A stretch of 64,000 bases of DNA from assembly GCA_965652925.1 (NCBI GenBank), contig CBFGXL010000002.1, positions 4,881 through 68,880 on the forward strand. The letters are read 5' to 3'. Positions 1 through 44,582 of this stretch are shown piece after piece. The notes under the pieces are model-generated. The model did no database searches. It saw nothing but the letters and a program-made list of their open reading frames with translations, and was not told the DNA's origin. Source of the stretch: an uncultured bacterium. GTDB taxonomy: Bacteria > Patescibacteriota > Minisyncoccia > Phycocordibacterales > UBA918. Made by a program: the position numbers and the translations under genes. Position 1 is the first letter of the stretch; the number at the start of each line of letters is the position of its first letter.

Positions 1-782
1 GGGTCCTGAGGATTCTGCCAAGTCAAAACAACGTCGTTCTCTGTCACTGATGCTTGCAGTCCAAAAACATTCGATGGCGGGATTGTGTCTGGAGCAGACA
101 GAGTTTTGAACGTACCGGAAGAAAGCACATGTCGTTTCCCCTGTCTGTCATACCCGAGAAGCTGATACTCATACACTGTTGCTGGCTCAAGATCAGTGAT
201 GACGGTCTTGTGCTCGCGTTTGAATGGTCCATTTGCAACAAAACCAAGTTCGTAGGAAGTGGTCCTCCCCCAGTGGAGTTCAAACTGAGCATACAGACTC
301 GTCTCCCATGAGACCTCTGCGCTGTATATCTCGGGGACAATATTAAAATCAACAAGATACAAATGAGTTCCACCCCCATCTGAAGATGGGGGTGGCGCAG
401 AAACGCCGGGCGTTGTAGTAGCAACAGCGGTTGAAGAAGATGAGTAATTATAAGATGAGTCGAACGCTGCTACAAAATAGGAATACGTGGTGCTTGCAAT
501 AAGCCCTGTGTCAGAATATGAGGTCAGAGAAGTTGTCGCGATCTGAACTGAATCACGGAATACTTGATACCCCCCAAGAGCCACGTCGTCAGTTGATGCA
601 TTCCATGAAAGATCTATCTGTGAAGAAGCCACAGGCGTTGCAGATAATCCTGTTGGCGTACTTGGAGCATTGATGTCCCCAATAACTTGCTGACCAACAC
701 GGAACTCATCGGTCTGCGCCTGTACAGGACCAGCGATGGTGAGAAAAAATGCAGCAGCAAAAACGAGAGCTTTCATTTTCAT
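1..782 (-). CDS. Partial CDS (5' end inside window, 3' end beyond position 1) for a secreted protein with a signal peptide and at least 2-3 fibronectin type III-like repeats.
   Basis: Reverse-strand translation from the ATG at 782 reads MKMKALVFAAAFFLTIAGPVQAQ... followed by LSATPVASSQIDLSWNASTDDVALGGYQVFRD...TTYSYFVAAFD, a classic FN3 pattern. There is no stop before the window edge, which explains why it is absent from the ORF track. Its start overlaps the upstream gene's stop by 4 bp (ATGA). Confidence 0.6.
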   Translation of the reverse strand, partial: MKMKALVFAAAFFLTIAGPVQAQTDEFRVGQQVIGDINAPSTPTGLSATPVASSQIDLSWNASTDDVALGGYQVFRDSVQIATTSLTSYSDTGLIASTTYSYFVAAFDSSYNYSSSSTAVATTTPGVSAPPPSSDGGGTHLYLVDFNIVPEIYSAEVSWETSLYAQFELHWGRTTSYELGFVANGPFKREHKTVITDLEPATVYEYQLLGYDRQGKRHVLSSGTFKTLSAPDTIPPSNVFGLQASVTENDVVLTWQNPQD

Positions 783-1540
783 AATGAGAGAGCGGTCAGT
801 GTTGTGGTCGCCACATACAGCCCAGGGGCCTGAATGACTGAGCCGCCTACCTCTACGCGGAAGCGAACAGTTGTGGTTGCTCCGGTTGGATGATTGGCAC
901 CAGTATTCGAAGCGATGATCACCGGTGACGTAGAAAGCCCGTCCCAGCATGCAAGTTCTGTGTCTTGCGAACCAGTGTTACACGCTCCTCCGTTATCTCT
1001 AAACCGTGATGTAATATCTATGCCTTCAGGTGTATAACCGAAGTGTGCATCGGCAGACCCAGAGGTGAATGTAAAATCTGGGTCTCCTGCAGGTGTGTAG
1101 TCTGCAATACTATCTGCTCCTTTTTGCATGGCAGGACTGTCTGAAGCAGCTATGGACAAAGAATACCCAGACGGACTGTCCGTTGTTACATTTACCGTAG
1201 CTGAACCATTGGAAGTTCCTCCAGAAATGCCGGGGATAGAGGGTGAAAGGCCTATATCAGATGATGCGCTTATAGCAATATAGACTTCCTGCATCTGCTG
1301 ATAACCGGCTTTGAGACTATAATTTGTGCTCGTGGATACACCGCTTGCTAATTCTCCTGCAGTAGATTCAAGTACATAGTTCGACGATGTTGAGAGACCG
1401 CCTCCGAAGTTGATGCTGTCACTCTGGATCTGATAGTTACTGCTTTGCATCACTTGCGCAATAGAAATGGACAAACTGCTGAATAACAGAACTGTTCCTA
1501 TGCCGGCGTACAGGGCTGATAAAAGAATACCCTTCCCCAT
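779..1540 (-). CDS. Secreted Ser/Thr/Gly-rich protein, paralog of 2620..3312, with a divergent WxL-like C-terminal domain.
   Basis: It has an N-terminal signal/TM segment (MGKGILLSALYAGIGTVLLFSSLSISIAQ). It shares collinear motifs with 2620..3312, including SPSIPGISGGTSNGS, DYTPAGDPDFTFTS, a C-x5-C-W pair, and the C-terminal YVATTTLTALSL, which resembles the WxL-domain end motif (tAtLTWTL). Confidence 0.55.
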   Translation of the reverse strand: MGKGILLSALYAGIGTVLLFSSLSISIAQVMQSSNYQIQSDSINFGGGLSTSSNYVLESTAGELASGVSTSTNYSLKAGYQQMQEVYIAISASSDIGLSPSIPGISGGTSNGSATVNVTTDSPSGYSLSIAASDSPAMQKGADSIADYTPAGDPDFTFTSGSADAHFGYTPEGIDITSRFRDNGGACNTGSQDTELACWDGLSTSPVIIASNTGANHPTGATTTVRFRVEVGGSVIQAPGLYVATTTLTALSL

Positions 1541-1545
1541 AGTAC

Positions 1546-2601
1546 TTACTGAGACTTACGTTTAAATTCAAAATTCTTTGCGAAGAAACGGACCAGGAAG
1601 AAGAGGACAAAGAGGACAACAAATACCGGGACAATAACCATCCATGGGAAGACCCAAAATGTTATCGTTTTCGTGTCGATCACATCATCGTACCCTCTAT
1701 TGATATGTGCTGTTGCGGTATATTTGCCGACGAGCAATTCCCTGCTCCATGAGACTTCTCGGGCACGCAGTGACTGAGGCAAAGAAAACCATGGATCAAG
1801 CTCTATAACCCCCACTTCCTCCCCAAGGAGATTGGTGATGCGGATTTCTCCGTATGGGTTAAGGTGTATATCACCCTTATTCTCATAGAGCACCTGGAAG
1901 TTGATTGGCCCTTCTGTAAAAAAAGATCTGTTTGGGATTGTCGCAAAGTCCTGCAGGATTCCTTCTGTTGCGATATCACCCGGCACCGTTACAAAGAAGA
2001 GTGTCCCCACTCTCGAGACAACCGCAGAGGCGGCTGAAGCACCAGACTGGTCCGCCACACCTGCTTCTTTTGAGACCGTAGTCACAAGAAGACTTCCGTA
2101 TCGTCCTCCCGCCTCCGCATCAGCAGGTATCGAGACAGTAACAGGAATACGTGCACGCTCATTATGCTCAAGATCAATGCTTGTATGCGGATATGAGATG
2201 TAGTCTCGGAGTGTATACGGACCACGATCATCCCCAAGAAGTACTACTGGCGTATTGGTGTTATATGAACCTTCAGCATCCTCAACTTCAAAATTGAATT
2301 GGCGCAGCTCACCCGTGCGGTTGGTCACCATGAGCTCTACAGTTTTTGACTGACCAGGTTCGATCACGAGTTCTGCTTTTCCTGGACCGACAACAAAATC
2401 TCCAGGAACAGAATCCGATGGAGAATCGAGAACTTCAGTTGTGTAGCCCAAAGGGGCACTTGAAGTTTGGTTGGCTGTTCCGCTTTCTGCACCTTCTTGA
2501 GAAAAAACGTTTTGGGGCAAAAGCATCACTCCAAGAAAGAGAAAGACTACCGCACAAACACGAGCGGTAGTCCTCTTCAGAAGTGTAGCTGAGTCATTCA
2601 T
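1546..2601 (-). CDS. Cell-surface protein with an N-terminal signal peptide and a C-terminal TM anchor plus a basic tail (DUF916/DUF3324-like architecture).
   Basis: The N-terminus is a hydrophobic signal (AVVFLFLGVMLLPQNVFSQ). The C-terminus is VFPWMVIVPVFVVLFVLFFLVRFFAKNFEFKRKSQ. It sits between two WxL-like genes, matching the arrangement of Gram-positive csc/WxL loci. Confidence 0.55.
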   Translation of the reverse strand: MNDSATLLKRTTARVCAVVFLFLGVMLLPQNVFSQEGAESGTANQTSSAPLGYTTEVLDSPSDSVPGDFVVGPGKAELVIEPGQSKTVELMVTNRTGELRQFNFEVEDAEGSYNTNTPVVLLGDDRGPYTLRDYISYPHTSIDLEHNERARIPVTVSIPADAEAGGRYGSLLVTTVSKEAGVADQSGASAASAVVSRVGTLFFVTVPGDIATEGILQDFATIPNRSFFTEGPINFQVLYENKGDIHLNPYGEIRITNLLGEEVGVIELDPWFSLPQSLRAREVSWSRELLVGKYTATAHINRGYDDVIDTKTITFWVFPWMVIVPVFVVLFVLFFLVRFFAKNFEFKRKSQ

Positions 2602-2619
2602 TATTTGAATGATTTTAAG

Positions 2620-3312
2620 CTAGTTGGTGGTAGCGGTCAACGTAGCAGTTGCAGTGTACGTGCCTGTCTGTATAGCTGGGCTTGGATTACTTGGTATGTT
2701 GACGCGGAACTGGATAGTGGTCGTTGCCCCCGATGCGGCGGTCGAAGTTGTCCTGTTTATGATAGTTTCTGCTGCATCATCAGGGTCCATCCAACACGTT
2801 CCAGAACCATCCGTTGCACCTGTCGCACAGGTATTTGACCCGTTATCAAGAAACGACGCATCGAGGTCAGCCGATGAGGAGGCAGTTACGGTGTATCCAA
2901 ACTGTGCGAATGTATCGCTGGTGAAGGTATAGTCTGGCGTACCATCAGCTGCTGGTGCGTAGTTGCTTATATAACCACCACCGCCATCGCGGATCATTGC
3001 AGTTGTGCTTGAGAAGGCAATGGTCATGTTATAGCCCGCCGCATTGTTGGTACGGACCCGTACAGCATACGAACCATTTGAAGTACCTCCTGTGATACCT
3101 GCAAGTGAAGGACTCATCGTCACATCACTTGAAGTTGCCACAAATGAGATCTCCTCAGTGACTGTCTGAGTGACTTCAAACTCATCAGTGTCAACCGCCG
3201 CTCTTCCCACAACCGGTTCGAGCATGAGAAATGATCCTGCTGCAAGCAACAGCATGAGCGTTGTTGCAGTGAGCGAACTCAGCAGCGAAGTCCTAATATT
3301 TGTAATGGTCAT
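2620..3312 (-). CDS. Secreted Thr/Ser-rich protein, paralog of 779..1540, with a WxL-like C-terminal domain (W positions substituted).
   Basis: It has a signal peptide (LLSSLTATTLMLLLAAGSFLMLEP), a collinear alignment to 779..1540, and the C-terminal YTATATLTATTN. Confidence 0.55.
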   Translation of the reverse strand: MTITNIRTSLLSSLTATTLMLLLAAGSFLMLEPVVGRAAVDTDEFEVTQTVTEEISFVATSSDVTMSPSLAGITGGTSNGSYAVRVRTNNAAGYNMTIAFSSTTAMIRDGGGGYISNYAPAADGTPDYTFTSDTFAQFGYTVTASSSADLDASFLDNGSNTCATGATDGSGTCWMDPDDAAETIINRTTSTAASGATTTIQFRVNIPSNPSPAIQTGTYTATATLTATTN

Positions 3313-3426
3313 ACGTTGTAAATTATGTGTGTTTGTTAATTACTTCTACTATTATCTCTTAATTTTCCTAGACTTTTTGATCGAACGAAGGGCTTCTGTG
3401 GATTACTTTTGCTTTGTCAAATAAGG

Positions 3427-6400
3427 CTAAATCTCTCCTCCTCCACCCCCGCCGCCGCCTCCTGCCTGGGTGTAGGGCCGCACTTGGATGGCATCAACCC
3501 GGACAGTGTTCTGATCGGGTTGTCCGATAACCCGCACTACGAAGTTTGCATCACCCAGTTCAGCAGGCGTCCATCCTCTTCCCCATGTGTCGGACGGTCC
3601 GCCGAGCGTGTAGACCGCGTCAGATCCCGTTAAGACTGAGGTTGCTTTGGTTGCAGTAACAGAACTGTCTCCATTCCATGAAAGCGCAACCTGGATAGTA
3701 CCCGCGCCAGTAGAACCAGATGCCTCGAGTTTTACTTCTATACCCTGTACGGTATTGCCGCCCGGCACATTGAATCCAAAGAGGCTATAGGATTGGCGCA
3801 GGTTTGTAGATGCTGCTGTTGCATAGACTCCGTCGGAAGAAAGAGCATTGCTTCCTCCTGTCCACTCGCTATAGAGCTCTCCAGTTGCGCTTGGAGCCTC
3901 AAAGCCTGGTTCGTTGCCAATCTCTTCCCCATTGTCTTCCTCTCCTACCCCGCCGCCGCCTTGGCTTCCGCCGCCGCCGACGTCTCCATCGCCTTCGGGC
4001 GCCTCACCTCCCACTTCGGCCGCATGCAAAGCTCCGCTTCCATTGTTTCCTCCGCGGATATGCTGCACGCTTGAGACAGACCCGAGTGGAACGATGGCCC
4101 CAGCGGTAGTAGCTCCGGTGCCAGACAAACCGGTAGTTGGCAAACTGATAGTTACATATTCATTAGTGAGTACTCCCGACACGTCGCTTGTAAGGATGTA
4201 GTCTTTGGTTGTGGTTGCACTCCATGATGTTGAGAATGTGACCGTTCCTGATTGTTCTGTAACCGAGATCTCTCCTGCCCCACCAATCTGGTTGTCCCCT
4301 GCATCTACAGACCCGTCGCTGTTGTTGTCGCGATACAGCCTCAAGTCTGAAAGGTTGCTGCTGTCTATGCGGCGGATGCCGGAGAGCGCGAACGCCGCCG
4401 ATGAGATAGTCGCATTCTCTCCTTCAGGTGCAAGCCTGAAAGTATAGAGCGGCACATCGCTCTGGTTCTGATAGCTGAATTCATTTTCCACCTGTCCCGC
4501 TGTATGTTCAGAAAGCGTTGCTGCGCCGTGAATGGCAATTGTTTTATCGTCGGTTGCGGTTATCTGCGCGACAGAACTACCTGGCGCAGTCATGACGCGG
4601 TTGGTGCCGCTATTGGCAACTGCTACGAGTGTTCCTGTTTCATAAAGATCACTTGCGTATGTGATCGAAGACCACTGATTTGCTTCAGCGGCTGTACGCA
4701 CAGTCCAGTTATTACCATCGGGTGAGGTCATAACATAGTCACTACCGCTTCCCACAGCAACAAAGAGATCGGATGCGTATACTACTGAGGCCCATGAGTC
4801 ATTATCACCAGCCGCCGAACGTGCGGTCCAGTTAATACCATCGGGGGAGGTCATGACGCGATCGCTACCGCTTCCCACAGCGACAAAGAGACCGTTGCCG
4901 TAAGTGACGCTCGTCCACCAGTCATTATCACCAGCAGCAGAACGTGGGGTCCACGTTGTACCGTCAGGAGAAGTAATAACACGGGTGTTTCCACTACCGA
5001 CTGCGACAAAGAGACCGTTGCCGTAAGTGACCGACTGCCAGTTACCTGAGACGGCTTGTGCGCTCCAAGTGATGCCATCATCTGAGCTCATGACCGACGC
5101 ATTAGTTCCACAACCATTATCGTATCCGCCGCAGCCAACTGCCACGAATTTGCCTGAACCATAAGTAACCTCTGACCATATTTGATCAGTGGCAACTGAA
5201 CGTGCAGTCCACGTGATGCCATCCGGAGAGGTCATGATCGGATCATCGCTACCTCCTGTACTCACCGCCACAAAGATACCTTCTCCATACGTTATGGAGG
5301 ACCAGGAATCATTATCACCAGCAGCCGAACGTGCGGTCCAGTTAGAACCGTCAGAGCTTGTCATGACGCGGTTGGTTCCGTTTTCGGCAACAGCAACGAG
5401 TAGTTCACTTTCGTAAGCGACTGAACTCCACGAGTTTGCTTGTGCAGCGGAGTGGGCAGTCCAGGCAGAACCTCCATCTTCTCCAGCACTCTCTGTAATT
5501 AGGACAAGTGTACTCGTTGCGGTGTTGACCGTTCCAAACTGCACGAATGAAAGTCCTGAGATAGTGAGAGTATCACTCCCAACGAAATCGTTAGAGACCG
5601 GAACAACAAGCGTCGCCCCACCATTCTCATACGAGACCGGATTTGCAACCTTGCCTGAAGCAGTGCCTCCGAAGGTAGCAGTGGTATCTGTAGTGTCCCA
5701 CAACATATCGGTTGCAGAAGTATCGATCTTAATGCGGAGGTCATTTGCTGCAGTAATTGCTGGGGTCTCCCCGTCCGTGATGGTTATGGTCGCTATTGTT
5801 GTAGTAGCTTGACCGTACCCAAAGACCTGGTTTGAAGCTGAGGAGATGGTTCCCGGCACGGGCTCACCCCCAGTAATATCCCAGCAGGTGTTATTGCCGC
5901 TGTCGGTAGAATCAGTTGCGGTTATGTTCGGGTTCCCTGAGCAGGCGTTTGAATCCTGTACGTCAACATAGGTCACCGAGATCGGGGTGGTGACATCAAG
6001 TCCCCACTGTGTCCCTTCTTTTGATGAGCGGAGTATCGCCTCACCCCCTTCTTCCCCATCAATTCTCAGAGAAGCAAAGGTTGAAGTAGCATATGCTGGA
6101 AACTCAAACGTCACCCCAGGGGTCTGTGAAATAAATTTTGATGCTTCCACGGGAGTTGAGAACCGGATGGTCCCATCCACACGAGATCCGCTGTTCGAAA
6201 TCATGACCCTGTTGCTCCCTGCTTCGATGTCGCCGACCGCCACAAACGTGCCATTGCCATAGGTGACCGAGAACCAATCATTAGCCTCCGCAGCGGCCCG
6301 CGCAGTCCACGTGATGCCGTCAGGCGAGGTCATGACGCGATTGGTGCCTGTGTCCGCAACCGCAACAAACAGACCATCGCCATAAGTAATCGCGAACCAG

Positions 6401-9400
6401 CCGCTTGCCTCCGCAGCTGCGCGGGCGGTCCACGTGATGCCGTCGGGTGAGGTCATGACGCGATTGGTGCCTGTGTGTGCTACCGCCACAAACGTGCTAT
6501 TACCATAGGCGACCGAGAACCAATCATTAGCCTCCGCAGCTGCGCGGGCGGTCCACGTGATGCCGTCGGGTGAGGTCATGACGCGATTGGTGCCGTCAGA
6601 GGCGACCGCTACAAACAGACCTTCACCATACGTGACTGATACCCACGAGTTAGCTTCCGCGGCAGAACGGGCGGTCCACGTGATGCCGTCGGGTGAAGTC
6701 ATGACACGGTTGGTCCCGTCAAAGGCGACCGCTACAAACAGACCTTCACCATACGTGACTGATATCCACGAGTTAGCTTCCGCGGCAGAACGGGCGGTCC
6801 ACGTGATGCCGTCGGGTGAGGTCATGACGCGATTGGTGCCATCTTGAGAAACGGCAACAAAGGTTCCATTGCCATAGGTAACACCGAGCCACGTCTGATT
6901 ATTGCCTGGAGTACTTCGTGCGGTCCACGTGATGCCGTCGGGTGAGGTGATGATTTGGTCATCTCCATCATACGCAACTGCAACAAAGAGACCTTCCCCG
7001 TAGGTGACTGAATACCAGCCTTGTGTTGACACGTTACTGCTTGTCCATGTTGTTCCTCCTTCAGCATTTGATCCGGAGGAAACCTTGACCACAAGATTGT
7101 TAAATGCCGAATCAGAGCTTAAAGCGCCGGTGAGCGTCTGGTCATTACCTGTAAGAGTAGTTGTCCCTGTTCCCCAGTCAATTGTTCCGTCATTGGTGTA
7201 ATCCCCTGCAATCGACATCAGCGCCGGCGCGTCGACCGTGGTCGATGCAGTGATGGTGAGGTCGCTTGTTGAAGCGTTGTTCTCAAAGACAACACCTCCT
7301 GCAAGACTGCCGCTGTTGGAGGTCATGACACGGTTGGTGCCAGTATCGGATACAGCTACAAGCATTCCATTCCCATATACCACCTCCATCCATCGATTTG
7401 CTTCTGTAGCAGGCGTACCTGTCCACGTGATGCCGTCGGGTGAGGTCATGACTCGGTTCCCTCCTGCTGTAGTGTTGCAGCTAGCGTTGCCGATTCCGCA
7501 TGCAACCGCGACAAACGTATGGCCCGTATGAGTGACCGACTCCCAGTTGTCGGCAGGCGCCGTTCGCTCGGTCCAGGTGATGCCATCGGGTGAGGTCATC
7601 GCAAGCGCAGTTCCATTTCCTACTGCAACAAAGAGTCCTTCGGCGTAGACAATACCGTGCCAAGACGACTGCGTCACAAGGGGCGTCCTTGTGGTCCACG
7701 TGATGCCATCGGGTGAGGTCATGATCGTACCATCCCATGATAAAGCCACAAAGAGGCTGTTGCCGTAGGTGACTACACTCCACTGGCTTGCCTGGGCTGC
7801 AGTTCTATTGGTCCACGTGATGCCGTCAGGAGAGGTCATGACGCGGTTGGTGCCGTCAACTGAAACGGCTACGAACATATCATTTCCAAATGCTACGCTA
7901 TACCACGAGTTAGCCTGTGAGGCGGTTCGTGCGGTCCAGGTGATTCCATCAGGCGAGGTCATCACGCGGTTGGTACCGCTTTCTGCTACTGCAACAAAGA
8001 TGCCATTGCCATATGTGACGGAGTTCCACCCAGCGGACTCGTCCGCAGACGTCCGAGCGGTCCATGTGATGCCGTCGGGAGAGGTCATTACATTATTTGT
8101 GCCTCCATTAGATACCGCAACAAAGAGTCCCTCGCCGTAGACAAGACCCTGCCACGAATTATTGGTAGCTGCACTGCGCGCGGTCCACGTGATGCCGTCC
8201 AGAGCAAGAGTCTGCGGACTATCAAGCGTCAGATCGTTGAACGCCGAAGTGCCGGTCATGTTGCCAGAGAGCGTGGTGGTACCTGTGTATACCGTTGATT
8301 CATCGTAATCAAGAGAATACGGAAACACTGTGTCTGCAGCCGCACCATATATGTATACTTTCGAGCCATCCGCATTGAACTCGATGCTGCATACGGAACT
8401 CTCCTGTGCAGATACCGATTCACCTGCTCCGTCGTATGTTGCAGTAGTTATGTCCCATGGCGTTCCGAGCGTGTACGGGAAAATGGTGTTTGAACCTGTT
8501 CCCACAACATACATCTTGGTACCATCGTCCTTAAGATGCACATCCTGCACAGCACTTTCCTGTCCGCTTATCAGGAAGGACTTGCTGTCATAGGTCGCGC
8601 TGCTGATGACCCATGGAGTTCCGAGCGTATATGAGTATATGCGATTGTTGCTGTCCCCGGATATATACATGCGAGTTCCATCCTCTGTAATGTGCATTCC
8701 GAATGGACTGACATCCTGAGCAATAGAGAAGGACGAGCTGTCATAGCTGGCTGTGGTGACATCCCATGGAGTTCCGAGCGTATAGGAGAATACAGCGTCA
8801 TTCTCTGAACCGAGCATGTACATCTTGGTGCCATCGGTCTTGAATGACACCTTCTCAACCCACTGGTCTTGAGCCAGGATACTGAAGGATTTGTTGTCAT
8901 ACACAGCTGTTGTGACGTCCCACGGGGTTGAAAGAGTGTACGAATACACCGTATCCATGTTGTACCCCGCTACGAACATCCGAGTGCCATCGGGACTGAA
9001 AGCAAGGCTTGTGATGTTATTCTCTTCGCTTGCAGTGGACTTCCCTGCGCCATCGTATACAGCAGTGGTGACGTCCCAGCCGCCGGTTACGGTGGTTGAA
9101 GCAGTAGTGGTTCCATTGATATACACAATGCCTGAGCCGCTGTTGAACGTGCCGCTGTTAGTGTAATCCCCCGTTATGGTCAAGGCGCTTGGGGCAGCCA
9201 CTGTAGAGCCCGAAGCGATCGAAAGATCGCTTGTGCTTGCATTGTCGCTGAAGGTCTTGGTGCTGTTGCCGGAGAAATAGACATCATTGAAAGCGCTCGT
9301 GCTTGCCATGTTCCCCTGGAGTGTTTGGGCCGTTGAGCCGGTGAAGTACACCGCTCCGCCGTTGTGTGTGAAGGTACCGTCGTTGGTATAGTCATCGGCA

Positions 9401-14928: not shown

Positions 14929-14931
14929 ACG

Positions 14932-17900: not shown

Positions 17901-20900
17901 CATTTGAAGCAATGGATACACCCTCATCGCCTCCATCTCCTGAGAGGAAGTTGGAACCGAGCGCGATGTTGGCGGCGTTACCTGAGAGCGTGAGTGTTGA
18001 CGTAGCGCTCAATGCTGAGAATGTTGCAGTACCTGAGAATGCAGGCGAACTTGAGAACACTGCGCGTTCAGTACCTGTTTCGTCGGTGAGTATTGCCGCA
18101 AGCTCTGCTGAAGTATCGATATCAGATGAGGAAAGCCCACCCCCACCAAGACCAAGCGTCGAGGTGGCGACCCAGTTGAACCCTGAGCCGGTTGATTGCA
18201 AGATCATGCCGTTGCTTCCTGCGCTGTTACTGTTGTCGTATAAGGCTCCGGTGATACGAGCACTCCCAGCGACAGTGAGCATCTGCGACGGTGTTGAGGT
18301 ACCGATGCCAAAGCGGCTTGAGGACATGTTCACTGATGAAAGTGTATTTGCAGACGTGGTTGCCGGTATGTTTGCAAAGAGGAAGTTCCCGATGTTGAGG
18401 AAGTTTGAGGTGTTAGTAGACGTACCCAAGGTATTGTTACCGATCATGATGTTGTTGAATCCGGTAGTTATATTGCCGCCAGTTGTAGTGGTGTTGTCTT
18501 TCGATCCAAGGTAGATGTTGCCGTAGCCAGTGGTGTTGGCATAACCAGCCCGATAGCCTAAAGAGACATTATTAGATCCGGTGGTGTTATTTTGAAGACC
18601 ACTCATGCCTACTGCCGCATTGTTCCTACCCGTAGTGTTGAGGAGTAGAGCATTCCTACCAAGGCCGGTGTTTCCTATACCAGTGAGATTGCCTGAGAGG
18701 GCGTAATTGCCGAGGGCGGTGTTGTTCGAGCCGGTAGTATTGACATCAAGTGTGTCAACACCTATTGCCACATTGCTATTACCCGTGGTGTTTGAGAGAA
18801 GCGAACCACTACCGAAAGCAGTGTTAGCAATTCCTGTGGTATTGGCGAAAAGTGAAGAATAGCCAACGGCAGTGTTTTGATTTCCTGTAGTGTTAGAGTA
18901 GAGCGTATTGATACCGACAGCAGTGTTCGAACCTCCCCCAGTAATAGAAGATGGCAGTGCGTTAAAGCCGCTTGCATAGTTGGTTCCGCTCTCACCCAAA
19001 TTCATAAGCCGTGTGCCATTACGAGCAAAGAGATTGATTGATGGGGTGTAGGTAATTTCCCGAACAGAAACGTTATCGATAGTATATAAGGTGCCCTCAC
19101 TATAGTATGAGCTATCTACGAATAGCGTGTCAGTTCCCGTGTAATCAGCAGTGAAAATAACTTGATTCTGTGCAAAGTAGCTATTATTTCCTTGAAGGCT
19201 ATTATTGGTGAAATAAACAGAGGCAGAGGAGCTTGCGGCGCCGCTAAAATCATATTGGATCAGATAGGTGTGCCCTGCCACGGTAGAAATGTTTTGTGAG
19301 ACAGTCGCATCGTTACATGCAGAAACACACGATACGCGGACATTGTTGCTGTTGTATGAAGCATCAGAACCAAGCGTCCAACCAGTGGCACTACCGGTGA
19401 AGGAACCGTTCGTAATGAGCTCGCTGCCGATGATAGTGCTTGAGGCTTGAGCGGTGAGTGAGGCGTACGAGGTAGAAGTTCCTATAGTAACCGTCTTGCT
19501 GTGAAGATCATCGGTAATACGAGCACTTCCTGCAACAGTGAGGAGCTGAGATGGGGTTGTGGTGCCGATACCGACGTTGCCAGTGCCTGTAACGGTGAAG
19601 TCAACGCCTGCATCACCTCCTGTCTCGACACTTAAATTACCAGATGCATTCATATACAGAAGTGCGTAGGTTGAAGGATTATAAAGTCCGATACCAGCAT
19701 TCGAAGTGCCAGATGTCTCTGTGATCTGTAAAAATGGGTAGGTAGATGCGACCAACTCGATATCATCAGCAGGCGAGGTCGTACCAATACCTATACGTCC
19801 CGCGCTCGTAACGAAGATACCCTCATCCCCTCCATCTCCCGAGAGCCAATTAGAACCAAGTGCAATATTTGCGGAAGATCCTGAGAGCGTGAGACGTCCT
19901 GACTGTGTGGTAGTTGCAAAAGAACCTGTACCGGTAGCAGTAAGGCTCGAGAAGGTTGCCGTACCGGAGAACGCAGGAGCGTTCGAGAAGACGAGGCGGC
20001 CGGAGCCGGTTTCATCGCCAACAATGGCAAGCAGTTCGCTTGAAGTATCAAGAAGACCGTTGTGAGTGAGGGTTGCGTCTGCAACGATCGCGTCGAGTTC
20101 TGCGTAGGTGTCGATATCTGCTGAGGTGAGACCGCCCGTGATGCCGAGTGTTGAAGTCGCAACCCAGTTGAACCCTGAGCCGGTAGACTGCAAGACCATA
20201 CCGTTTGAACCTGCGCTGTTGCTGTTGTCGTAGAGAGCTCCGGTGATGCGGGCTCCTCCGGCGACCGTCAAAAGTTGAGACGGGGTTGAGGTTCCAATAC
20301 CCACATACCCCGCCCCATTGATCACTAGGCGATCATTGGTACCAAGTGCTGAAGAAGAAGAGATCTTGAACTTAGACCCGTCGCTGTCATCAATGCCGAT
20401 CGTCCACTTCTCATTTGCTCCTGAGATAGTTGAGAACTCGATCGCAGCGTCTGCGCCGTTGTTGAAGATAGAAAGCTTCTGGTTAGGAGTAGTGGTGCCG
20501 ATACCGAGGCGGCCAGTTGAGAGGATGAGTCCTGCCCTATTGTTTGATGAGAGAAGTGACGAAGAAGCAGTGCCCTCGATGGTGAGTGCGCCATTAATGA
20601 GAGCATTCTGACCGACGTTGAGTCCACCGCGCACATTCACCCCTTGGTCGAAGGTTGCAGTTTGCTTGGTGCGGAAGATGTCGAAGAGTCCAGAGCCCGC
20701 GAACATGTTGGAGACGGTGAGGCCGGAGATATCGATTATGGCGAGGTTGTTGGAGGCAGACCCTGTCACGTACACATAGTTGCCGGAGACACTGACAGAT
20801 CGGGGACCATCCATCACATTTGCGTCATTTGGATCCCAATTACCGACGGTGACCGGTGCGGCCGGATCAGAAATATTGACGATAGCGAGGTTCTGTGAGA

Positions 20901-23802
20901 GACCTCCGCTTACATACGCATAATTACCGGAAATTGCGACCCCTTGCCCGTAGTTCATCACATTTGCGTCATTTGGATCCCAATTACCGACGGTGACCGG
21001 TGCGGCCGGATCAGAAATATTGACGATAGCGAGGTTGTCCGAAACTGCACCTGATATGTATGCATAGTTGCCAGAGATGGCAGCGAACTGAGGACTATCC
21101 ATCACATTTGCGTCATTTGGATCCCAATTACCGACGGTGACGGGATTTGCGGGATTTGAGATGTCGATTATGACGAGGTTATCTGAGACGCTACCTGCTA
21201 CATACGCATAGTTGCCAGAGACCATAACGAAACCAGCATTATTCATCACGTTCGTATCATTTGGATCCCAATTACCGACGGTGACGGGGTTCGTTGGGTT
21301 GCTGATGTCGATTATAGCGAGGTTGTTAGAGACTCTTCCAGGTACATACGCATAGTTGCCTGAGACCTCAACAGAAGAAGGATAATCCATCACATTTGCG
21401 TCATTTGGATCCCAATTACCGACGGTGACCGGTGCAGTTGGGTCTGAGACATCAACGATGACGAGATTGTCAGAGTTAGCTCCCGATACATACGCATAAT
21501 TTCCAAAAACGCTAACACGAGGTCCGCCATCCATCACATTTGCGTCATTTGGATCCCAATTACCGACGGTGACCGGTGCGGCCGGGTCGCTGATATCGAC
21601 GATTGCAATATTATTAGAATTATTCCCTCCAACGTATGCATAGTTCCCTGAGATAGTGCCGTAGGTTGTCCCACTCATCACATTTACGTCATTTGGATCC
21701 CAGTTGCCAATTGTTGTTGGGGTGGAGACGTTTCCGAGAATATGCGCACTTCCCCATACGTCGAGCTTCGCAGAAGGTGTGGTCGTTCCAATACCCACAT
21801 TCCCGGCACTCGTCACATACACACCCTCATCTCCTCCATCTCCCGAAAGCCAGTTGGAGCCAAGCGCGATGTTTGCAGCTGTGCCTGAGAGCGTGAGGGT
21901 TGAGGTTGCGGTCAAGGCAGAGAATGTTGCGGTGCCCGAGAATGCAGGTGAACCTGAGAAGACAAGACGGCCTGAGCCGGTCTCATCATCCATGAGCGCA
22001 AGCAGCTCAGAAGAAGCGTCGATCTCGTCAGCATTGAGTACCGCGATGCCTGATTCCTGAAGCGCAATGCTTGAGAAGTTAACAGTACTGACGCCTGTGT
22101 TGGAAGTGATATCCACGAAGTTGGCACCACCTGTAGCATCGTCGAAATTGAATCGAAGATCCTCGTCGTTTCCATTCCCCTGTCCTTGAATGATGAGCAT
22201 ACCATCTGCATCAGTATCAAGAAGAACGCCTGTTGACGATGAATCGATACGGATCGAGGTGGCCTCGAATTGATTGTTCACCGTGAGAACTTCAGAGGAA
22301 GTTACCGACAATGTCACGTCGGTGCCTGCAGGAGAAGCCTCCCATGCAATCGATTCAGCATTCCCGAGCCGCAATACACCAGTGTCTGCAACATCAGCGT
22401 TGGTTGAGGCGAAGATGGGGCTAAGAGCGCTCGTTGTGAATGTCGGACTGGTACCAAAGACCAAGGCTCCTGAGCCGGTCTCCCCCGTCACTGCAGTAGC
22501 TAGGTTGGCGCTTGAGGGGGTCGCGAGGAACGTAGCCACGCCGGTACCAAGGCCTGAAACTCCCGTACTGATCGGAAGACCTGTTGCGTTGGTTAAGGTA
22601 CCGCTTGACGGCGTCCCGAGTGCACCGCCATTGACGACGAACGATCCAGCAGTACCGACGTTTACGCCAAGTGCTGTGAGGACTCCCGTACCTGCTCCGG
22701 TGAGTCCGGTAGAGATCGGCAACCCAGTTGCGTTGGTGAGCGTTACTGCAGACGGCGTGCCGAGGTTCGGGGTGGTGAGTGTTGGTGAAGTTGCAAAAAC
22801 AAGGGCGCCGGAGCCAGTTTCGTCAGTGAGTGCGTTCGCAAGTGCCGCCGAAGCAGCGGTTGTGGTAGCACGGCTTGAAGAATCGAGGAAAAGCGCCCGT
22901 GAAGCGGTCAGTGAGGAGAACGTGACTGCGCCAGAAAGTGATGGGGTTGCGAGGGTGGGACTCGTCCCGAAGACTGCCGCTCCTGAGCCGGTCTCGTCTC
23001 CTAGGATTGCTGCGAGTTCTGCGGAGGTATCGATGAGTCCATTGTGTGTCAGGGTGACGTCAGCAACAATAGCATCGAGTTCTGCGTAGGTGTCGAAGGC
23101 GCTTGTTGAAGCATAGAGCGTATTGAGGTAGGTGGTGTTGATGGCAAGGGTGTTTCCTGAGTTCTGGAGGCCTGTACCGGTAAGATCAGTGAACCGCTCC
23201 CCATTGACCACGAGGTTCGTGGTCGTCGCTGTTATCGCCGTAAGCTGCGTGATCGTAGACGATGCGTTGCTTATAAGTCCGCCGGTGAATGTGAGCAATC
23301 CTGAAGCAGTATCAGCTTGATCGCTGCGAAGGAGCGAGGTTGAGGCAACGCCGCCCACCGTATCGGAATCAGCGGCATGTTCTGCTTCAAAAGCGGCAGG
23401 GACTGCGCCAATGACCTTTCGTGGAGTCATTTCAGCATCACCTTCGATCGAAACCCCGAGGTACAGTGGCTGATTAAAGTCCACACTTGTTAAAGGAGTA
23501 GTGCTACCAAGCATAATGGAGAACAAACCACTGGTAACCTGCACCTCATTGGTCAGTGTCTCTGTCCAGATGGGTGAACCACCCGTTGCTTGGGTATAGA
23601 GCGAAAATTCCATGTCATAGAGACCGTCAGCAACAGCTATGCTCGTTGAGGCCGTTAATTTTCCCTGGTAGTTGATCGTGGGTGTAAATGCCGCCAAAGC
23701 GTGTACTCCAAACAAGACATACAGTGCCACCACTCCGCAGAGTATGAGCGGCAGCAGAAGAATATGCGGTTGTATATACCGGTTATTCATTTCTGTTTTC
23801 AA
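14932..23802 (-). CDS. Giant (2956 aa) membrane-anchored surface protein containing an N-terminal tail-fibre-like domain, eight LVIVD repeats, G-I-G-T-T-x-P tail-fibre-like modules, a CBM4/9-like jelly-roll domain, Hep_Hag-like N-T-T-G repeats, and an acidic Pro/Glu-rich C-terminal tail.
   Basis: It is an 8.9-kb ORF with an N-terminal TM segment (ILLLPLILCGVVALYVLFGVHALAAF). It has eight 48-aa NWDPNDANVM...GNYAYV.G..S.NLVIVDVSDPTAPVTVG repeats (the LVIVD motif). The modules ELDAIV.DETGSG and G-IGTTTPS.KL recur several times. It carries ITNGSFTGSATGWT (CBM4/9-like) and a C-terminal tail PEEPQTEQPPQE.... Confidence 0.85.
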   Translation of the reverse strand: MKTEMNNRYIQPHILLLPLILCGVVALYVLFGVHALAAFTPTINYQGKLTASTSIAVADGLYDMEFSLYTQATGGSPIWTETLTNEVQVTSGLFSIMLGSTTPLTSVDFNQPLYLGVSIEGDAEMTPRKVIGAVPAAFEAEHAADSDTVGGVASTSLLRSDQADTASGLLTFTGGLISNASSTITQLTAITATTTNLVVNGERFTDLTGTGLQNSGNTLAINTTYLNTLYASTSAFDTYAELDAIVADVTLTHNGLIDTSAELAAILGDETGSGAAVFGTSPTLATPSLSGAVTFSSLTASRALFLDSSSRATTTAASAALANALTDETGSGALVFATSPTLTTPNLGTPSAVTLTNATGLPISTGLTGAGTGVLTALGVNVGTAGSFVVNGGALGTPSSGTLTNATGLPISTGVSGLGTGVATFLATPSSANLATAVTGETGSGALVFGTSPTFTTSALSPIFASTNADVADTGVLRLGNAESIAWEASPAGTDVTLSVTSSEVLTVNNQFEATSIRIDSSSTGVLLDTDADGMLIIQGQGNGNDEDLRFNFDDATGGANFVDITSNTGVSTVNFSSIALQESGIAVLNADEIDASSELLALMDDETGSGRLVFSGSPAFSGTATFSALTATSTLTLSGTAANIALGSNWLSGDGGDEGVYVTSAGNVGIGTTTPSAKLDVWGSAHILGNVSTPTTIGNWDPNDVNVMSGTTYGTISGNYAYVGGNNSNNIAIVDISDPAAPVTVGNWDPNDANVMDGGPRVSVFGNYAYVSGANSDNLVIVDVSDPTAPVTVGNWDPNDANVMDYPSSVEVSGNYAYVPGRVSNNLAIIDISNPTNPVTVGNWDPNDTNVMNNAGFVMVSGNYAYVAGSVSDNLVIIDISNPANPVTVGNWDPNDANVMDSPQFAAISGNYAYISGAVSDNLAIVNISDPAAPVTVGNWDPNDANVMNYGQGVAISGNYAYVSGGLSQNLAIVNISDPAAPVTVGNWDPNDANVMDGPRSVSVSGNYVYVTGSASNNLAIIDISGLTVSNMFAGSGLFDIFRTKQTATFDQGVNVRGGLNVGQNALINGALTIEGTASSSLLSSNNRAGLILSTGRLGIGTTTPNQKLSIFNNGADAAIEFSTISGANEKWTIGIDDSDGSKFKISSSSALGTNDRLVINGAGYVGIGTSTPSQLLTVAGGARITGALYDNSNSAGSNGMVLQSTGSGFNWVATSTLGITGGLTSADIDTYAELDAIVADATLTHNGLLDTSSELLAIVGDETGSGRLVFSNAPAFSGTATFSSLTATGTGSFATTTQSGRLTLSGSSANIALGSNWLSGDGGDEGIFVTSAGRIGIGTTSPADDIELVASTYPFLQITETSGTSNAGIGLYNPSTYALLYMNASGNLSVETGGDAGVDFTVTGTGNVGIGTTTPSQLLTVAGSARITDDLHSKTVTIGTSTSYASLTAQASSTIIGSELITNGSFTGSATGWTLGSDASYNSNNVRVSCVSACNDATVSQNISTVAGHTYLIQYDFSGAASSSASVYFTNNSLQGNNSYFAQNQVIFTADYTGTDTLFVDSSYYSEGTLYTIDNVSVREITYTPSINLFARNGTRLMNLGESGTNYASGFNALPSSITGGGSNTAVGINTLYSNTTGNQNTAVGYSSLFANTTGIANTAFGSGSLLSNTTGNSNVAIGVDTLDVNTTGSNNTALGNYALSGNLTGIGNTGLGRNALLLNTTGRNNAAVGMSGLQNNTTGSNNVSLGYRAGYANTTGYGNIYLGSKDNTTTTGGNITTGFNNIMIGNNTLGTSTNTSNFLNIGNFLFANIPATTSANTLSSVNMSSSRFGIGTSTPSQMLTVAGSARITGALYDNSNSAGSNGMILQSTGSGFNWVATSTLGLGGGGLSSSDIDTSAELAAILTDETGTERAVFSSSPAFSGTATFSALSATSTLTLSGNAANIALGSNFLSGDGGDEGVSIASNGDFTMTGASGDYLFVSLNEASGYPTLFGSGDVVSIESHAEILNGFSMNIFDSGNDRSAYLEVENNGATVFGNSAGNLALLPASNVGIGTTSPQSKLDVYGAIRSTNPSSVSDYIELDATSNANAITSGSNYLTFNVAGWNGVATLTNGRMGIGTSTPNQKLSIFNNAADAAIEFSTVSGANEKWSIGIDDSDGAKFKISSSSALGTNDRLVINGAGNIGIGTASPNGKLHVYSGASGAAVNSAADELVLEGSGNAGLTLMTPDASNSMIYFGTPSDGVGAQINWNHTSDLFTIGAHNTGADVTIQAGSGTDVMRILDTGFVGIGTTTPSSLLAMGTTSVSGSRTAGIHQYFNFTNSSASAVYYGDNSYIVNAPTATSTLVGKMLRIEDDTALGNTVRGLEVQAHRGTNTQGENTGISAFGRTFGVRGTTEGDAGGTFQPAGVFAQTRGTTQGNAIRAYSASITTEDLVSLFQDTSAFAGTGLVMNFGNSGGSFSSTTSKFVDFQNAGTSKFTVTAHGTTTIGDGTTNNMAGLQIGYGGLCVDNDGSCNASTTGKITSVSSAVGNSDLAEMYFSSEDLEPGEIIATAGILSIERADEENSANIIGVVSTKPGLTLGFDDTSLTSGQEGYPVALSGRVPVKLSTENGPIKAGDKIMLSSIPGVGMKATESGTVVGVALEDYDGEYAYSEGFIDQFGDDIAEPKTDPLSQEDDERIHDGCYFGGGVALGEEEEECTPRDTQRFESVETAIADEHEEMQDALRDLAREDAREEEIADGQAVKVGQALMFVNLGWHPANAESLLAELTSTSTDVVLGSDGEETLWDRVKTLAQGFVDGVLNVAGLRAENVYVENELCVDGVCLTADDLRALLLEVNRPSNGSGSGEQTPPPQEEPQEPAPSETQGGGETEGGTGDTEATPPPPEDAMQEEPPVEEPQTEQPPQETELQPQNEPTEEPQTEETAEEPVVEEGTQEEVAEEPQVETAEEQSIEVTP
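20680..21830. repeat. Eight or so tandem copies of a 144-bp (48-codon) unit with high nucleotide identity inside the 2956-aa gene, encoding LVIVD repeats.
   Basis: The core catttgcgtcatttggatcccaattaccgacggtgac recurs at 20821, 20965, 21109, 21253, 21397 and 21541, with diverged copies at ~20677 and ~21685, an exact 144-bp period. Confidence 0.85.
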
Positions 23803-24511
23803 CCGGTACTAATAAAAAAGTTGTAGACCCAGAACCATTCTTGAATATTGGGCGTATCAGCGGACCACCCTCCTCATCGAAGATGATCTCCACATCATCA
23901 GAAAACTCTGCTGCCACACTTTCAACCAGAGCAGTATCCTCCTGTTCACTCCGCGGTGGAAATTGCGGCAATGTCGTAAAGATCTCGACGTCTTCGCGAA
24001 CCGTGGTGCTTCCCTCAAGCGCTGCAGAGATATGCTTTTCATCTCGAGAGAATTCCAATACGAAACTGGGGAGTGTGGCTTTAGCAACAAGCGCAACGTT
24101 CTCTGATGCGGCAGAGCTCAACTCTGTAAGTCCAACCTGTTCATGTGACACAACCCACCCAAGCATTCCCACAATCCCTCCGCATGTCAGCAATACAGCA
24201 GCCTGAGCCAATGCAAGAAATTCATGGTCCTTTGAAGCACCGCCCACATCTGTTTTTCTCTGATGAGACTCGTGTTCGATCTTGCGTACTCGTCTGAGTT
24301 CCTCCTTTCTGATCTTTTTCTCAATCTCAACTTGTGCGAGATATGTGTTGAGTGATCCGGGTTCGATGAACCACTGTCTGCCCACCTGAGTTCCAAGAAT
24401 TTTTTCCTCCCGGGCAAGCTTGCCGATGTAGTCATGACTGTACCCGCACTGCGAAGCAAGTACGTTGCTTGGAACGTACTCTTTTCCGTTTATGACAAGG
24501 CTCTGCGTCAT
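23783..24511 (-). CDS. Membrane-tethered DNA-binding protein with an N-terminal HTH_17/excisionase-family HTH, one TM helix and a ~115-aa C-terminal extracytoplasmic domain.
   Basis: The N-terminal ~55 aa (INGKEYVPSNVLASQCGYSHDYIGKLAREEKILGTQVGRQWFI) fits the excisionase-type HTH pattern (..G.S..yIgkLaR.G.i....vGrrwrI). The TM segment is LALAQAAVLLTCGGIVGMLGWVV. It is a paralog of 24555..25586. Confidence 0.6.
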   Translation of the reverse strand: MTQSLVINGKEYVPSNVLASQCGYSHDYIGKLAREEKILGTQVGRQWFIEPGSLNTYLAQVEIEKKIRKEELRRVRKIEHESHQRKTDVGGASKDHEFLALAQAAVLLTCGGIVGMLGWVVSHEQVGLTELSSAASENVALVAKATLPSFVLEFSRDEKHISAALEGSTTVREDVEIFTTLPQFPPRSEQEDTALVESVAAEFSDDVEIIFDEEGGPLIRPIFKNGSGSTTFLLVPVENRNE

Positions 24512-24554
24512 ACGATTTACCTATATATTTTATAAGTAAATCGCTAATTTTATT

Positions 24555-25586
24555 CTAAAAAATAAAGAAATTTGTGGAGAACTTTAAAAGGTCAAAAAGT
24601 GCATCAAATTCTTCCACCGAAGTATGCACAGATGCAGTCAGATGCTCGATTGCAAACTGATACGAAGTAGTGACCGTCTGCCCTTCCACTAAGTAGTTGC
24701 TCTCGAGTCCAAGCAGACCGACTACAAGCAGAATAGAAAAAGCAAAAGATGCCAGAACAAGCACTTTCGAACCTAACGAAGAATTTCCCTCCTCAGCAAC
24801 AAGAACTTTCGCACCCTCTGAAAGTCCAGCCGGTGTTTGTGCGGATTCATGTCTGACCGGAGTATGCACAGGCAAATCATGAGAATGAATATTTTTTGTT
24901 GTTGCTGTAGTGGCACCGTTTCTGTGTGCGGCATTCTGAGGAATCAATGCAGTTGTTTTTCGCATTCCATGAAATGGTTTTGACGAAATAACTATATTTT
25001 TAGTCTTTTTATGATCTTTTACTTCTTTTGGGTGGATTATCTTCTGACCTTCCATCTCCTGTATCCTCCCCTCATCAACCTCTGAAACGTGCAGTGCCCC
25101 ACGAAAGCGAATCTCGGGCAGCTTTGGGGCATCCATACGATAGCTAGGCACACTCGACGCTATGGGAAGTTGGACAGCGTCAGCCAGCTCAACTTCAAGT
25201 GAGCCATTTCTTTTCCCTTCTTTTTGAACCAGAGGTATCAACTCGGATTCATCCTCTAAATAGGCAACTTTTGAAGTTTTCTGACTGTGGTAAAAATGGG
25301 GTGATGCTACTTGCTTGTTCGTGCTCTCATTAACACGTACTTTCACTTCTTCTCGTAGAGATTCCTTTGCCTTTGTAGTAGTGCTTCTGTAACGACTCGT
25401 CTTATGCATTGAGATGGAATCACGGTCTACATACCAACTTCTCCCCACCAATTTGGCATGCACACGATGGGATCGGCAGAGCTGCCCCACATAATCAGCA
25501 GTGTACCCGAGATCTCGGGCGATAACACTAGCTTTTACATATTCTTTTCCCCCAACGTTAAGAACGTCCATACCAGAATTATACAC
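24555..25586 (-). CDS. Membrane-tethered DNA-binding protein with an N-terminal HTH_17/excisionase-family HTH, a long basic linker and a C-terminal TM helix (paralog of 23783..24511).
   Basis: The N-terminus (VGGKEYVKASVIARDLGYTADYVGQLCRSHRVHAKLVGRSWYV) matches the same HTH signature. The TM segment is VLVLASFAFSILLVVGLLGL near the C-terminus. Confidence 0.6.
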   Translation of the reverse strand: MYNSGMDVLNVGGKEYVKASVIARDLGYTADYVGQLCRSHRVHAKLVGRSWYVDRDSISMHKTSRYRSTTTKAKESLREEVKVRVNESTNKQVASPHFYHSQKTSKVAYLEDESELIPLVQKEGKRNGSLEVELADAVQLPIASSVPSYRMDAPKLPEIRFRGALHVSEVDEGRIQEMEGQKIIHPKEVKDHKKTKNIVISSKPFHGMRKTTALIPQNAAHRNGATTATTKNIHSHDLPVHTPVRHESAQTPAGLSEGAKVLVAEEGNSSLGSKVLVLASFAFSILLVVGLLGLESNYLVEGQTVTTSYQFAIEHLTASVHTSVEEFDALFDLLKFSTNFFIF

Positions 25587-28969: not shown

Positions 28970-29001
28970 AAAAAACCGCTCTAATGTGGGGGCGGTTTTT
29001 T
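28970..29001. terminator. Intrinsic terminator-like hairpin (stem ~6 bp, CCGCTC/GGGCGG with one G-U) flanked by an A6 tract on one side and a T6 tract on the other; it would terminate secA transcription on the minus strand.
   Basis: aaaaaaCCGCTCtaatgtggGGGCGGtttttt lies directly 3' of the secA stop (29017). It is symmetric, so it reads as hairpin + U-tract in both orientations. Confidence 0.4.
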
Positions 29002-29016
29002 GTAAACATCGTCGTG

Positions 29017-44567: not shown

Positions 44568-44582
44568 AATTAAAATTACATC

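Follow-up and report, generated by a model that had tools for sequence, protein, structure and literature searches.

Assembly by donor-strand exchange has been described for pili of the Candidate Phyla Radiation (CPR), with cryo-electron microscopy structures of two pilins, PamA and PamB, of the Saccharibacterium Ca. Mycosynbacter amalyticus (PDB 25PZ, 25QA; bioRxiv 10.64898/2026.03.03.709456). The operon model in that preprint further includes a single-domain tip pilin (PamT), the PapD/FimC-like proteins PamC and PamD, which retain a C-terminal membrane helix, and PamR, an RbmA-like FnIII protein whose membrane helix is C-terminal and whose N-terminus adds an extra strand, which plugs into the last pilin. 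A tail-fibre-like protein is co-localised with the Pam locus. The main carriers are Saccharimonadia and Microgenomatia, and the preprint mentions neither WxL nor DUF916 domains, nor Paceibacteria. Here we describe a locus in a 64,000-nucleotide stretch of DNA from an uncultured patescibacterium of the Paceibacteria/Kaiserbacteria type (contig CBFGXL010000002.1, positions 4,881 to 68,880), which is called the window below. Its open reading frame map shows eight successive genes, all on the minus strand, from the start of the window to position 25586. This array probably encodes an usher-less surface stalk or pilus that uses a membrane-tethered chaperone (chap351) and donor-strand complementation, with a PamT-like tip or adaptor subunit (pil253), a shaft or adaptor subunit (pil230), an FN3 protein as anchor and two giant proteins (G1 and G2) as variable adhesins. 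Most likely, the locus is a variant of the Pam pilus type, first described in 2026, that is present in another CPR class and is widely conserved. The initial annotation considered the array not to be a described system, which no longer holds given that the Pam preprint presents the same cast of proteins and that the NCBIfam model for PamT matches pil253.

A second point of comparison is provided by the WxL gene clusters of Firmicutes, in which a strand of the DUF916 domain is predicted to insert into the WxL domain (PMC10599100). The most common cluster type, accounting for 98 of 179 clusters, consists of one WxLIP gene and two WxL genes (PMC10599100). The window carries the same one-plus-two layout, which agrees with the earlier reading of pil230, chap351 and pil253 as a WxL-like/DUF916-like trio.

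The central gene of this trio, chap351 (1546..2601, 351 amino acids), encodes a protein in which a signal peptide precedes two beta-sandwich domains and a membrane helix lies at the C-terminus. The match of this protein to the Pfam family WxLIP_PGBD/DUF916 (PF06030) scores 29.2 bits against a cut-off of 27.3. DUF3324 is not called by Pfam, although a second Ig domain and the membrane helix are present. More than 1200 homologues were found, the top 120 of which all exceed 50% identity, and the motif DFVVGPGK is invariant. An AlphaFold2 model built from 44 sequences (pLDDT 84) places a signal helix at the N-terminus, beta-sandwiches at residues 53-176 and 195-317, and a C-terminal helix at residues 320-350. 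When this model was compared with the PDB using Foldseek, the top matches were the WxLIP of E. faecium, both free and in complex with a 'long WxL' protein (E 2e-12), followed by RbmA and then by the chaperones CfaA, CsuC, CupB2, Caf1M and FimC. The chap351 family profile likewise matches WxLIP among PDB sequences (9i25_C, E 8.5e-7). Given the profile matches to WxLIP and PF06030, the Foldseek ranking and the C-terminal helix, chap351 is classed, by homology and modelling, as a membrane-tethered relative of WxLIP whose fold is like that of chaperone-usher chaperones. This is the architecture of PamC and PamD, and we regard chap351 as a putative chaperone. Its agreement with a PapD/FimC-like chaperone carrying a C-terminal transmembrane (TM) helix is one of fold and architecture only.

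On either side of chap351 lie genes for two small secreted Ig-like proteins that are paralogous to each other (41% identity over the Ig domain, E 9e-30), for which we propose the subunit roles named above. The protein pil253 (779..1540, 253 amino acids) starts with a signal peptide and a highly conserved stretch with three S-x-N-Y strand repeats, followed by an Ig-like domain that contains an invariant pair of cysteines. It matches the NCBIfam model NF058579 ('CPR-type pilus protein PamT'), which derives from the Pam preprint, with E 4.6e-12 over residues 15-145 only, at 45.9 bits versus an equivalog cut-off of 240. The same model is matched by 41 of 42 members of the pil253 family (best E 6e-14). 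This family is uniform, with lengths of 252-257 amino acids and more than 60% identity in the 120 closest homologues; its members share a single invariant tryptophan, within CW[DM], and end in LTAL or LTAT. In an AlphaFold2 monomer model of pil253, residues 29-83 (55 residues) are unstructured and the Ig-like domain is predicted with confidence. The best fold matches are the TLP-1b and TasA fibres. Searches of PDB sequences with the two pilin-type proteins, both as single sequences and as profiles, returned nothing.

The second small protein, pil230 (2620..3312, 230 amino acids), is of pilin type, and the mature N-terminus predicted for it, an extension that resembles a donor strand, reads TDEFEVTQTV. 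A closely related mature N-terminus, TDEFRVGQQV, follows the signal peptide of the FN3 protein (<1..782), which is truncated by the start of the window such that only the first 260 of its 561 codons are present. Metagenome contigs in ENA that are identical to this region reveal the full gene of 561 amino acids, with three C-terminal hydrophobic helices encoded beyond the window start. After the mature N-terminus come FN3 domains, and the fn3 assignment is confirmed by Pfam (E 9e-11 to 1.7e-10). Orthologues of pil230 and of the FN3 protein have in common the N-terminal motif [TSE]-D-x-F-x-[VI]-x-Q-x-[VI], and lineage variants of this motif occur in both proteins of the same genome, for example EDQF in each, or YDQF in one and YDSF in the other. 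Within genomes, the 12-mers at the mature N-termini of the two proteins share a mean of 4.0 identical positions versus 3.16 +/- 0.15 in permuted pairings, with 0 of 5000 permutations reaching the observed value, in a comparison that ignores shared ancestry and includes a few mis-picked registers. This within-genome likeness is supportive of strand donation, but not conclusive.

Because it carries the strand motif, has no acceptor Ig domain and places its helices at the other end, the FN3 protein has the features expected of the terminator or anchor of a donor-strand chain. Its architecture parallels the anchor role proposed for PamR, and at this level the fn3 domain, the membrane helices and the shared motif correspond to a membrane-anchored FnIII terminator that bears an additional strand at its N-terminus. 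On this basis we consider the FN3 protein a putative PamR-like anchor or terminator. The strand common to the FN3 protein and pil230, together with the predicted disorder of the pil253 N-terminal extension, points indirectly to a filament formed by donor-strand exchange. One further feature of the pil230 orthologues (L007-L086; window 3190-3230) is that the signal peptide ends in a conserved [LF]-E-P-x-[VL]-[GS]-x-A before the mature strand; the Glu-Pro pair inside a signal peptide is unusual.

A profile of pil253 was run against 1.84 billion cluster representatives and matched 1532 clusters at E <= 1e-3, including 687 at E <= 1e-10. Of the 150 best representatives, 49 exceed 300 amino acids. 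These comprise 17 joined calls of chaperone and pilin and 32 proteins in which the full SxNY+Ig module is C-terminal to unrelated domains of 100-1950 amino acids. The N-terminal domains of these fusions include LamG, FN3 repeats and beta-helix-like repeats; examples are a 2187-amino-acid repeat-rich protein and a 1205-amino-acid protein with LamG and four FN3 domains. In locus L089, the gene order is HTH_B-type (one of two helix-turn-helix types discussed below), pil230-like, chaperone and the 2187-amino-acid fusion; in L091 it is gatB, HTH_B-type, pil230-like, chaperone, a 670-amino-acid fusion and the FN3 protein. These gene orders place the adhesin-bearing version in the slot of pil253. Large binding proteins are therefore physically tied to the pilin module in some lineages at least, and this combination of a binding domain with a pilin domain parallels FimH and PapG.

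Two other groups of representatives were noted in the same set. In the 17 joined calls (P0293, P0295, P0299, P0303 and 13 more), the chaperone with its membrane helix is continuous with the signal peptide and pilin of pil253, which reflects either genuine fusion or gene calling that read through a stop codon. In P0326 (468 amino acids), the pil253 module is C-terminal and the N-terminal domain shows a sub-threshold resemblance (E 1.6e-8) to the NCBIfam 'TafC family fimbrial protein', a similarity that hints at ties between the pil253 module and other fimbrial families.

To survey related genomes, a scan with one genome per species was used, which yielded 200 confirmed relatives of chap351; the counts that follow refer to the best 80 loci. 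Their record titles include Paceibacteria/Paceibacterota, Kaiserbacteria, Nomurabacteria, Zambryskiibacteria and Parcubacteria. Searches by tblastn with all window proteins detected pil253 at 80 of 80 loci, pil230 at 79 and the FN3 protein at 74. The core order pil230-chaperone-pil253-FN3 on a single strand is kept without exception (79-80 of 80 loci), with misses mainly at contig ends. An open frame of at least 800 codons lies beside the core at 51 of 80 loci, many of which are on truncated contigs. The survey bears out strong conservation of the neighbourhood but not the fixed order HTH-HTH-giant-giant-trio that had been anticipated, since the giants stand before or after the core and many genomes have only one HTH gene. 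The window layout, obg-gatB-HTH(-HTH)-giants-core-GAPDH, occurs alongside a second layout, obg-gatB-HTH(-HTH)-core-giant. The existence of both layouts reveals that the giants move, yet remain adjacent to the core. No usher-like gene is present at the window locus or at the 80 related loci, where every gene is accounted for.

These features align the locus with Pam pili in several respects. Both are CPR-specific, Sec-exported and usher-less, and both combine a single-domain pilin (in the window, a distant match to PamT and a putative tip subunit), a PapD-like chaperone with a C-terminal helix and an FnIII membrane anchor with an extra N-terminal strand, with large tail-fibre-like proteins adjoining the operon. 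However, the window locus lacks the two-domain major pilins (PamA, PamB, PamE) and has one chaperone gene only. Its neighbours are obg-gatB and GAPDH rather than the ATP synthase, CorB or MFS genes that adjoin Pam operons, it is headed by HTH-plus-TM genes, and its carriers are Paceibacteria-type genomes. The PamT match is also far under the equivalog cut-off.

With Firmicute WxL clusters, the locus has in common the likeness of chap351 to WxLIP (DUF916, DUF3324 and a TM helix; PDB 9i1y, 9i25) in sequence, fold, domain order and C-terminal helix. It also shares the flanking of the WxLIP-like gene by two small secreted beta-proteins, and the presence of large surface proteins at the same locus. 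The fusions found in other lineages resemble 'large WxL' proteins, in which binding domains precede a C-terminal anchoring module. In contrast with those clusters, the window has no WxL domain, no W-x-L motif, no DUF3324 call and no LPXTG partner, and it adds an FN3 membrane anchor whose N-terminal strand is pilin-like. Pfam searches of the two small proteins at E <= 0.1, motif searches for a dual W-x-L and fold searches identified no WxL-domain protein, and the WxL chain of 9i25 was missing from their top fold matches.

Chaperone-usher pili such as Pap, Fim, Csu and CFA/I resemble the locus in their two-Ig chaperone and in Ig-like subunits with an N-terminal extension of alternating hydrophobic residues, and their tip subunits may bear an N-terminal receptor-binding domain, as in FimH and PapG. 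They differ in that no outer membrane and no usher are present here, the chaperone is membrane-tethered and an FN3 membrane protein would be the terminator; sequence similarity is undetectable. Relative to all of these systems, the distinctive features of the window locus are its minimal set of single-domain pilins, a WxLIP-type chaperone that is detectable by sequence, the HTH-TM genes, and a tip module that occurs either on its own or joined to an adhesin.

We propose that a stalk of this kind would be assembled as follows. Every part would be exported by Sec, and the tethered chap351 would fill the open Ig fold of pilin-type subunits and so hold them just after export. The PamT-like module of pil253 would be distal, free in this organism and, in other lineages, located at the C-terminus of a large adhesin. 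The protein pil230 would insert its N-terminal strand (D-x-F-x-V-x-Q-x-V) into the preceding subunit. The FN3 protein, with the same strand and no acceptor domain, would end the chain, and its three C-terminal helices would tie the chain to the membrane. G1 and G2, with tail-fibre-like modules, LVIVD and other propellers, would be deployed with the stalk as variable adhesins that bind a host or a surface. One or two HTH_17-TM proteins would act as ToxR-style membrane-bound regulators or sensors of the locus.

Several observations weigh against this proposal. The match of pil253 to PamT spans the N-terminal half alone (46 versus 240 bits), and the NCBIfam Pam models give no match to pil230, chap351, the FN3 protein or the HTH proteins. 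Two-domain major pilins of the PamA/PamB type, with an N-terminal beta-sandwich, a strand as linker and a truncated C-terminal Ig domain, are absent, the window having single-domain proteins of 230 and 253 amino acids; proteins that combine an N-terminal domain with SxNY+Ig do occur in other lineages. Fold scores for the pilins are weak. Both chap351 and pil253 are unusually conserved for exposed pilus parts (more than 50% and 60% identity, respectively, across the 120 closest homologues of each), which could indicate an envelope-structural role instead. There is no sequence link between the giants and the pilins, and the adjacency of giants and core could partly reflect regional synteny because the housekeeping neighbours are conserved too. 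The permutation result for the N-terminal strands carries the limits given with it.

Some of the same data can be accommodated by a WxL-type wall-attachment complex, in which the small beta-proteins would sit on peptidoglycan, held by the WxLIP-like protein, as a short, non-polymeric anchor for surface proteins. WxLIP is the best match of chap351 in both sequence and fold, one WxLIP with two small proteins is the most common WxL cluster type, and the strong conservation of the small proteins would suit wall binding. We nevertheless find this explanation unlikely. The small proteins yield neither a Pfam WxL match nor a dual W-x-L motif, and the WxL chain of 9i25 is not among their top fold matches. 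Moreover, the N-terminal pilin strand shared with the FN3 anchor suggests chain formation, and the relationship to PamT points to a demonstrated filament system. The strong conservation of pil253, together with its abundance across Paceibacteria and its fold matches to TLP-1b and TasA fibres, would also fit a TasA/TLP-type matrix fibre or sheet-like layer of the envelope in place of an adhesive pilus. We judge this highly improbable. A PapD/WxLIP-like membrane chaperone is missing from TasA-type systems, as is an FN3 membrane anchor, and the adhesin-like fusions, with LamG, FN3 repeats and beta-helix-like repeats, argue for a binding function.

A different question is whether the array forms one apparatus. 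The four-gene core could be a unit, with the giants and the HTH-TM genes as independent neighbours that are held in place by regional conservation of gene order. Indeed, murB, secA, obg, gatB and GAPDH are equally syntenic, the giants vary in position, number and content, the HTH signal of the window copies is weak, and the three intergenic gaps contain no common operator-like motif. However, the giants adjoin the core on whichever side they lie, and an adhesin is fused to the pil253 module in other lineages. The HTH_B-type gene abuts the pilin gene when giants are downstream, and does so also in L089, where the upstream neighbour is FtsW/RodA. In the window itself, the HTH_B stop overlaps the G1 start, and G1 and G2 are spaced by only 3 nucleotides. 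In view of these observations, we consider a set of independent neighbours quite improbable and retain the stalk or pilus as the favoured explanation.

Host attachment of uncultivated CPR bacteria outside Saccharibacteria is largely unexplained. With its presence in at least 200 species-level Paceibacteria-type genomes and the 687 clusters matched at E <= 1e-10, the locus represents a widespread candidate attachment organelle with named parts. It offers predictions for the pairing of strands with subunits, for the anchoring protein and for the site at which adhesins are plugged in. The sequence-detectable WxLIP-type chaperone bridges the Pam and WxL literatures, which do not cite each other. 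A broader idea, which we offer tentatively and regard as doubtful, is that Firmicute WxL clusters, CPR Pam pili and the Paceibacteria locus might be branches of one ancient, usher-less, single-membrane donor-strand system with a tethered chaperone. It would be a near-universal core organelle in Paceibacteria, with an interchangeable PamT-like tip that is free or fused to a giant adhesin, and the HTH-TM protein might read assembly state or host contact through its outside C-terminal motif. If true, this arrangement would provide cells that are poor in regulators with a direct signalling route from surface to DNA.

The two HTH-TM genes stand at the head of the array. HTH_A (24555..25586, 343 amino acids) begins with an HTH_17-like domain, which a long linker of low complexity connects to a single membrane helix at about residues 269-300, followed by a short outside tail; by alignment with orthologues, its start is probably the sixth codon. 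In HTH_B (23783..24511, 242 amino acids), the N-terminal HTH_17-like domain is followed by a coiled coil, a membrane helix at about residues 97-120 and an ectodomain. The two are paralogous over the first ~53 amino acids only (38% identity, E 5e-13). The assignment of these proteins as HTH proteins is supported at the level of the family (HTH_17 in 17 of 31 orthologues, best E 1.3e-7) and weak for the window copies themselves (E 0.048 in one case, no match in the other). The family is fast-evolving, with just 48 matches in a large database.

Both subtypes can be followed across loci, with type A marked by the long linker and by a membrane helix close to the C-terminal end, and type B by the coiled coil, a helix near residue 100 and the ectodomain. 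Many genomes have a single HTH gene, and these retain type B. At all 25 loci with a visible flank, one or two HTH-TM genes lie between gatB and the module. The HTH_B type is also present in L087, L088, L089 and L091, in the same context wherever this was checked. Type-B proteins diverge fast except at the end of the ectodomain, where a conserved strand-like motif, FSDE..V.PD..G.SGVI.PVFK....EYLYV.VPV, is found. For HTH_B, this end is described by the more general form FSD[DE]..I..D..G.....P[IV]FK......[FY]..VP, and examples among type-B orthologues are at window 23783-23900, L091:995-1234 and L089:2019-2822. The chaperone or the pilins might make contact with the protein at this motif. In L089, a free-standing 66-amino-acid MerR/HTH_17 protein is divergently encoded just upstream of the HTH_B-type gene (L089:1496-1696, minus strand).

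The HTH-TM proteins resemble ToxR and TcpP in having a cytoplasmic N-terminal domain of DNA-binding type, one membrane helix and an outside domain, and in heading a pilus locus as two paralogues. Unlike ToxR, which has an OmpR-type winged helix, they carry an HTH_17 domain (MerR/excisionase-like), such that the topology is the same and the family different, and no partner similar to ToxS or TcpH is seen. By this analogy they would most likely serve the locus as membrane-bound, ToxR-style regulators or sensors. As conserved genes in genomes with few regulators, they are candidates for contact-dependent regulation.

Both giants have a cleavable-looking signal peptide and no membrane anchor. The signal peptide of G1 (14932..23802 or 14932..23790) is followed by a conserved N-terminal 'INYQGKLT' domain. 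Regular-expression counts and tandem-repeat analysis identify ten GIGT..P..L.V and six DETGSG modules. A 7-blade LVIVD propeller spans approximately residues 700-1030 (seven Pfam LVIVD matches, E 2e-54; 48-amino-acid repeats), and the C-terminal tail is acidic and rich in proline and glutamate. G2 (3427..14928, 3833 amino acids) begins with three weak N-terminal domains that are gp53-like or WIAG-tail-like and contains at least 33 propeller blades of ~41 amino acids in several blocks, which are called as DUF6242/EPTP. Its C-terminal ~370 amino acids are kept immediately upstream of the pilin gene in many genomes. Matches below the curated cut-offs comprise DUF642, which is CBM-like (E 0.044), Gp53-like_C (E 9e-4) and WIAG-tail (E 6e-6), and searches with PHROGs matched solely families of unknown function.

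Among the domains proposed in the initial annotation, fn3, DUF916, LVIVD (as seven repeats) and the propellers (as DUF6242/EPTP) were recovered, but H-lectin, BNR, PD40 and WxL were not (none at E <= 0.1). The CBM-like and tail-fibre-like modules that it had suggested do find counterparts in DUF642, Gp53-like_C and WIAG-tail, all of them under curated cut-offs. Two possible structural links were considered for the giants and rejected. A C-terminal pilin or WxL-like domain showed no detectable similarity. For a conserved donor strand, the AFN..INYQGKLT stretch of G1-type proteins looks like part of a folded domain and the N-termini of G2-type proteins are not conserved.

The array is as tightly packed as had been claimed. 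There is an ATGA overlap at 779/782 between the FN3 and pil253 genes, and gaps of 5, 18 and 3 nucleotides occur at subsequent junctions. A 114-bp gap (3313..3426), AT-rich with 31.6% GC, lies before the pilin core, and 69 bp separate HTH_A from gatB. G1 and HTH_B do overlap, but the proposed 20 nucleotides, based on a TTG start at 23802 (2956 amino acids), are less plausible than an ATG start at 23790 (2952 amino acids) that gives an 8-nucleotide overlap with the HTH_B stop (ATGAATAA). The proteins are also envelope-directed as stated earlier, with a hydrophobic N-terminal signal or a membrane helix in 8 of 8 hydropathy profiles. Past the FN3 gene, the identical ENA contigs carry GAPDH, then rpiB/rpe and transketolase, so the array terminates at the FN3 gene and is set within housekeeping genes. 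On the other side, gatB (25656..27068) and obg (27079..28047), both on the minus strand, are separated by 10 bp. No second copy of any array component is present within the window.

The 114-bp gap is a possible internal promoter. Scans for sigma-70 promoters and intrinsic terminators gave background levels only, and a search of the window with Rfam found zero families. When the three intergenic gaps were compared, they had no k-mer in common save one AT-rich 7-mer and no inverted repeat, and therefore no operator is obvious. Directly after secA, at approximately 28970-29002 on the minus strand, a strong hairpin precedes a T-run (AAAAAACCGC...GCGGTTTTTTG). Downstream of this hairpin are a small Phage_holin_4_2-type gene (assigned from the syntenic gene in L087/L088), obg and gatB. 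The hairpin region is most likely the start region for any transcript that reaches the array.

Other surface-related genes are located elsewhere in the window. A low-GC island at 40125-47724 (GC 0.36-0.40 at 42001-48000) encodes a fused ATP-sulfurylase/APS-kinase, a sulfotransferase, two methyltransferases, a hexapeptide acyltransferase, a polysaccharide deacetylase and a GT1 glycosyltransferase, with a flippase-type Polysacc_synt gene on the opposite strand. This gene content suggests that a sulfated surface polysaccharide may be made by a CPR bacterium. Near the island lie genes for a 660-amino-acid protein with CBM96, Peptidase_C39_2 and FIMAH domains (36037-38019) and for a 664-amino-acid protein with Acyl_transf_3 and SGNH domains (38084-40078).

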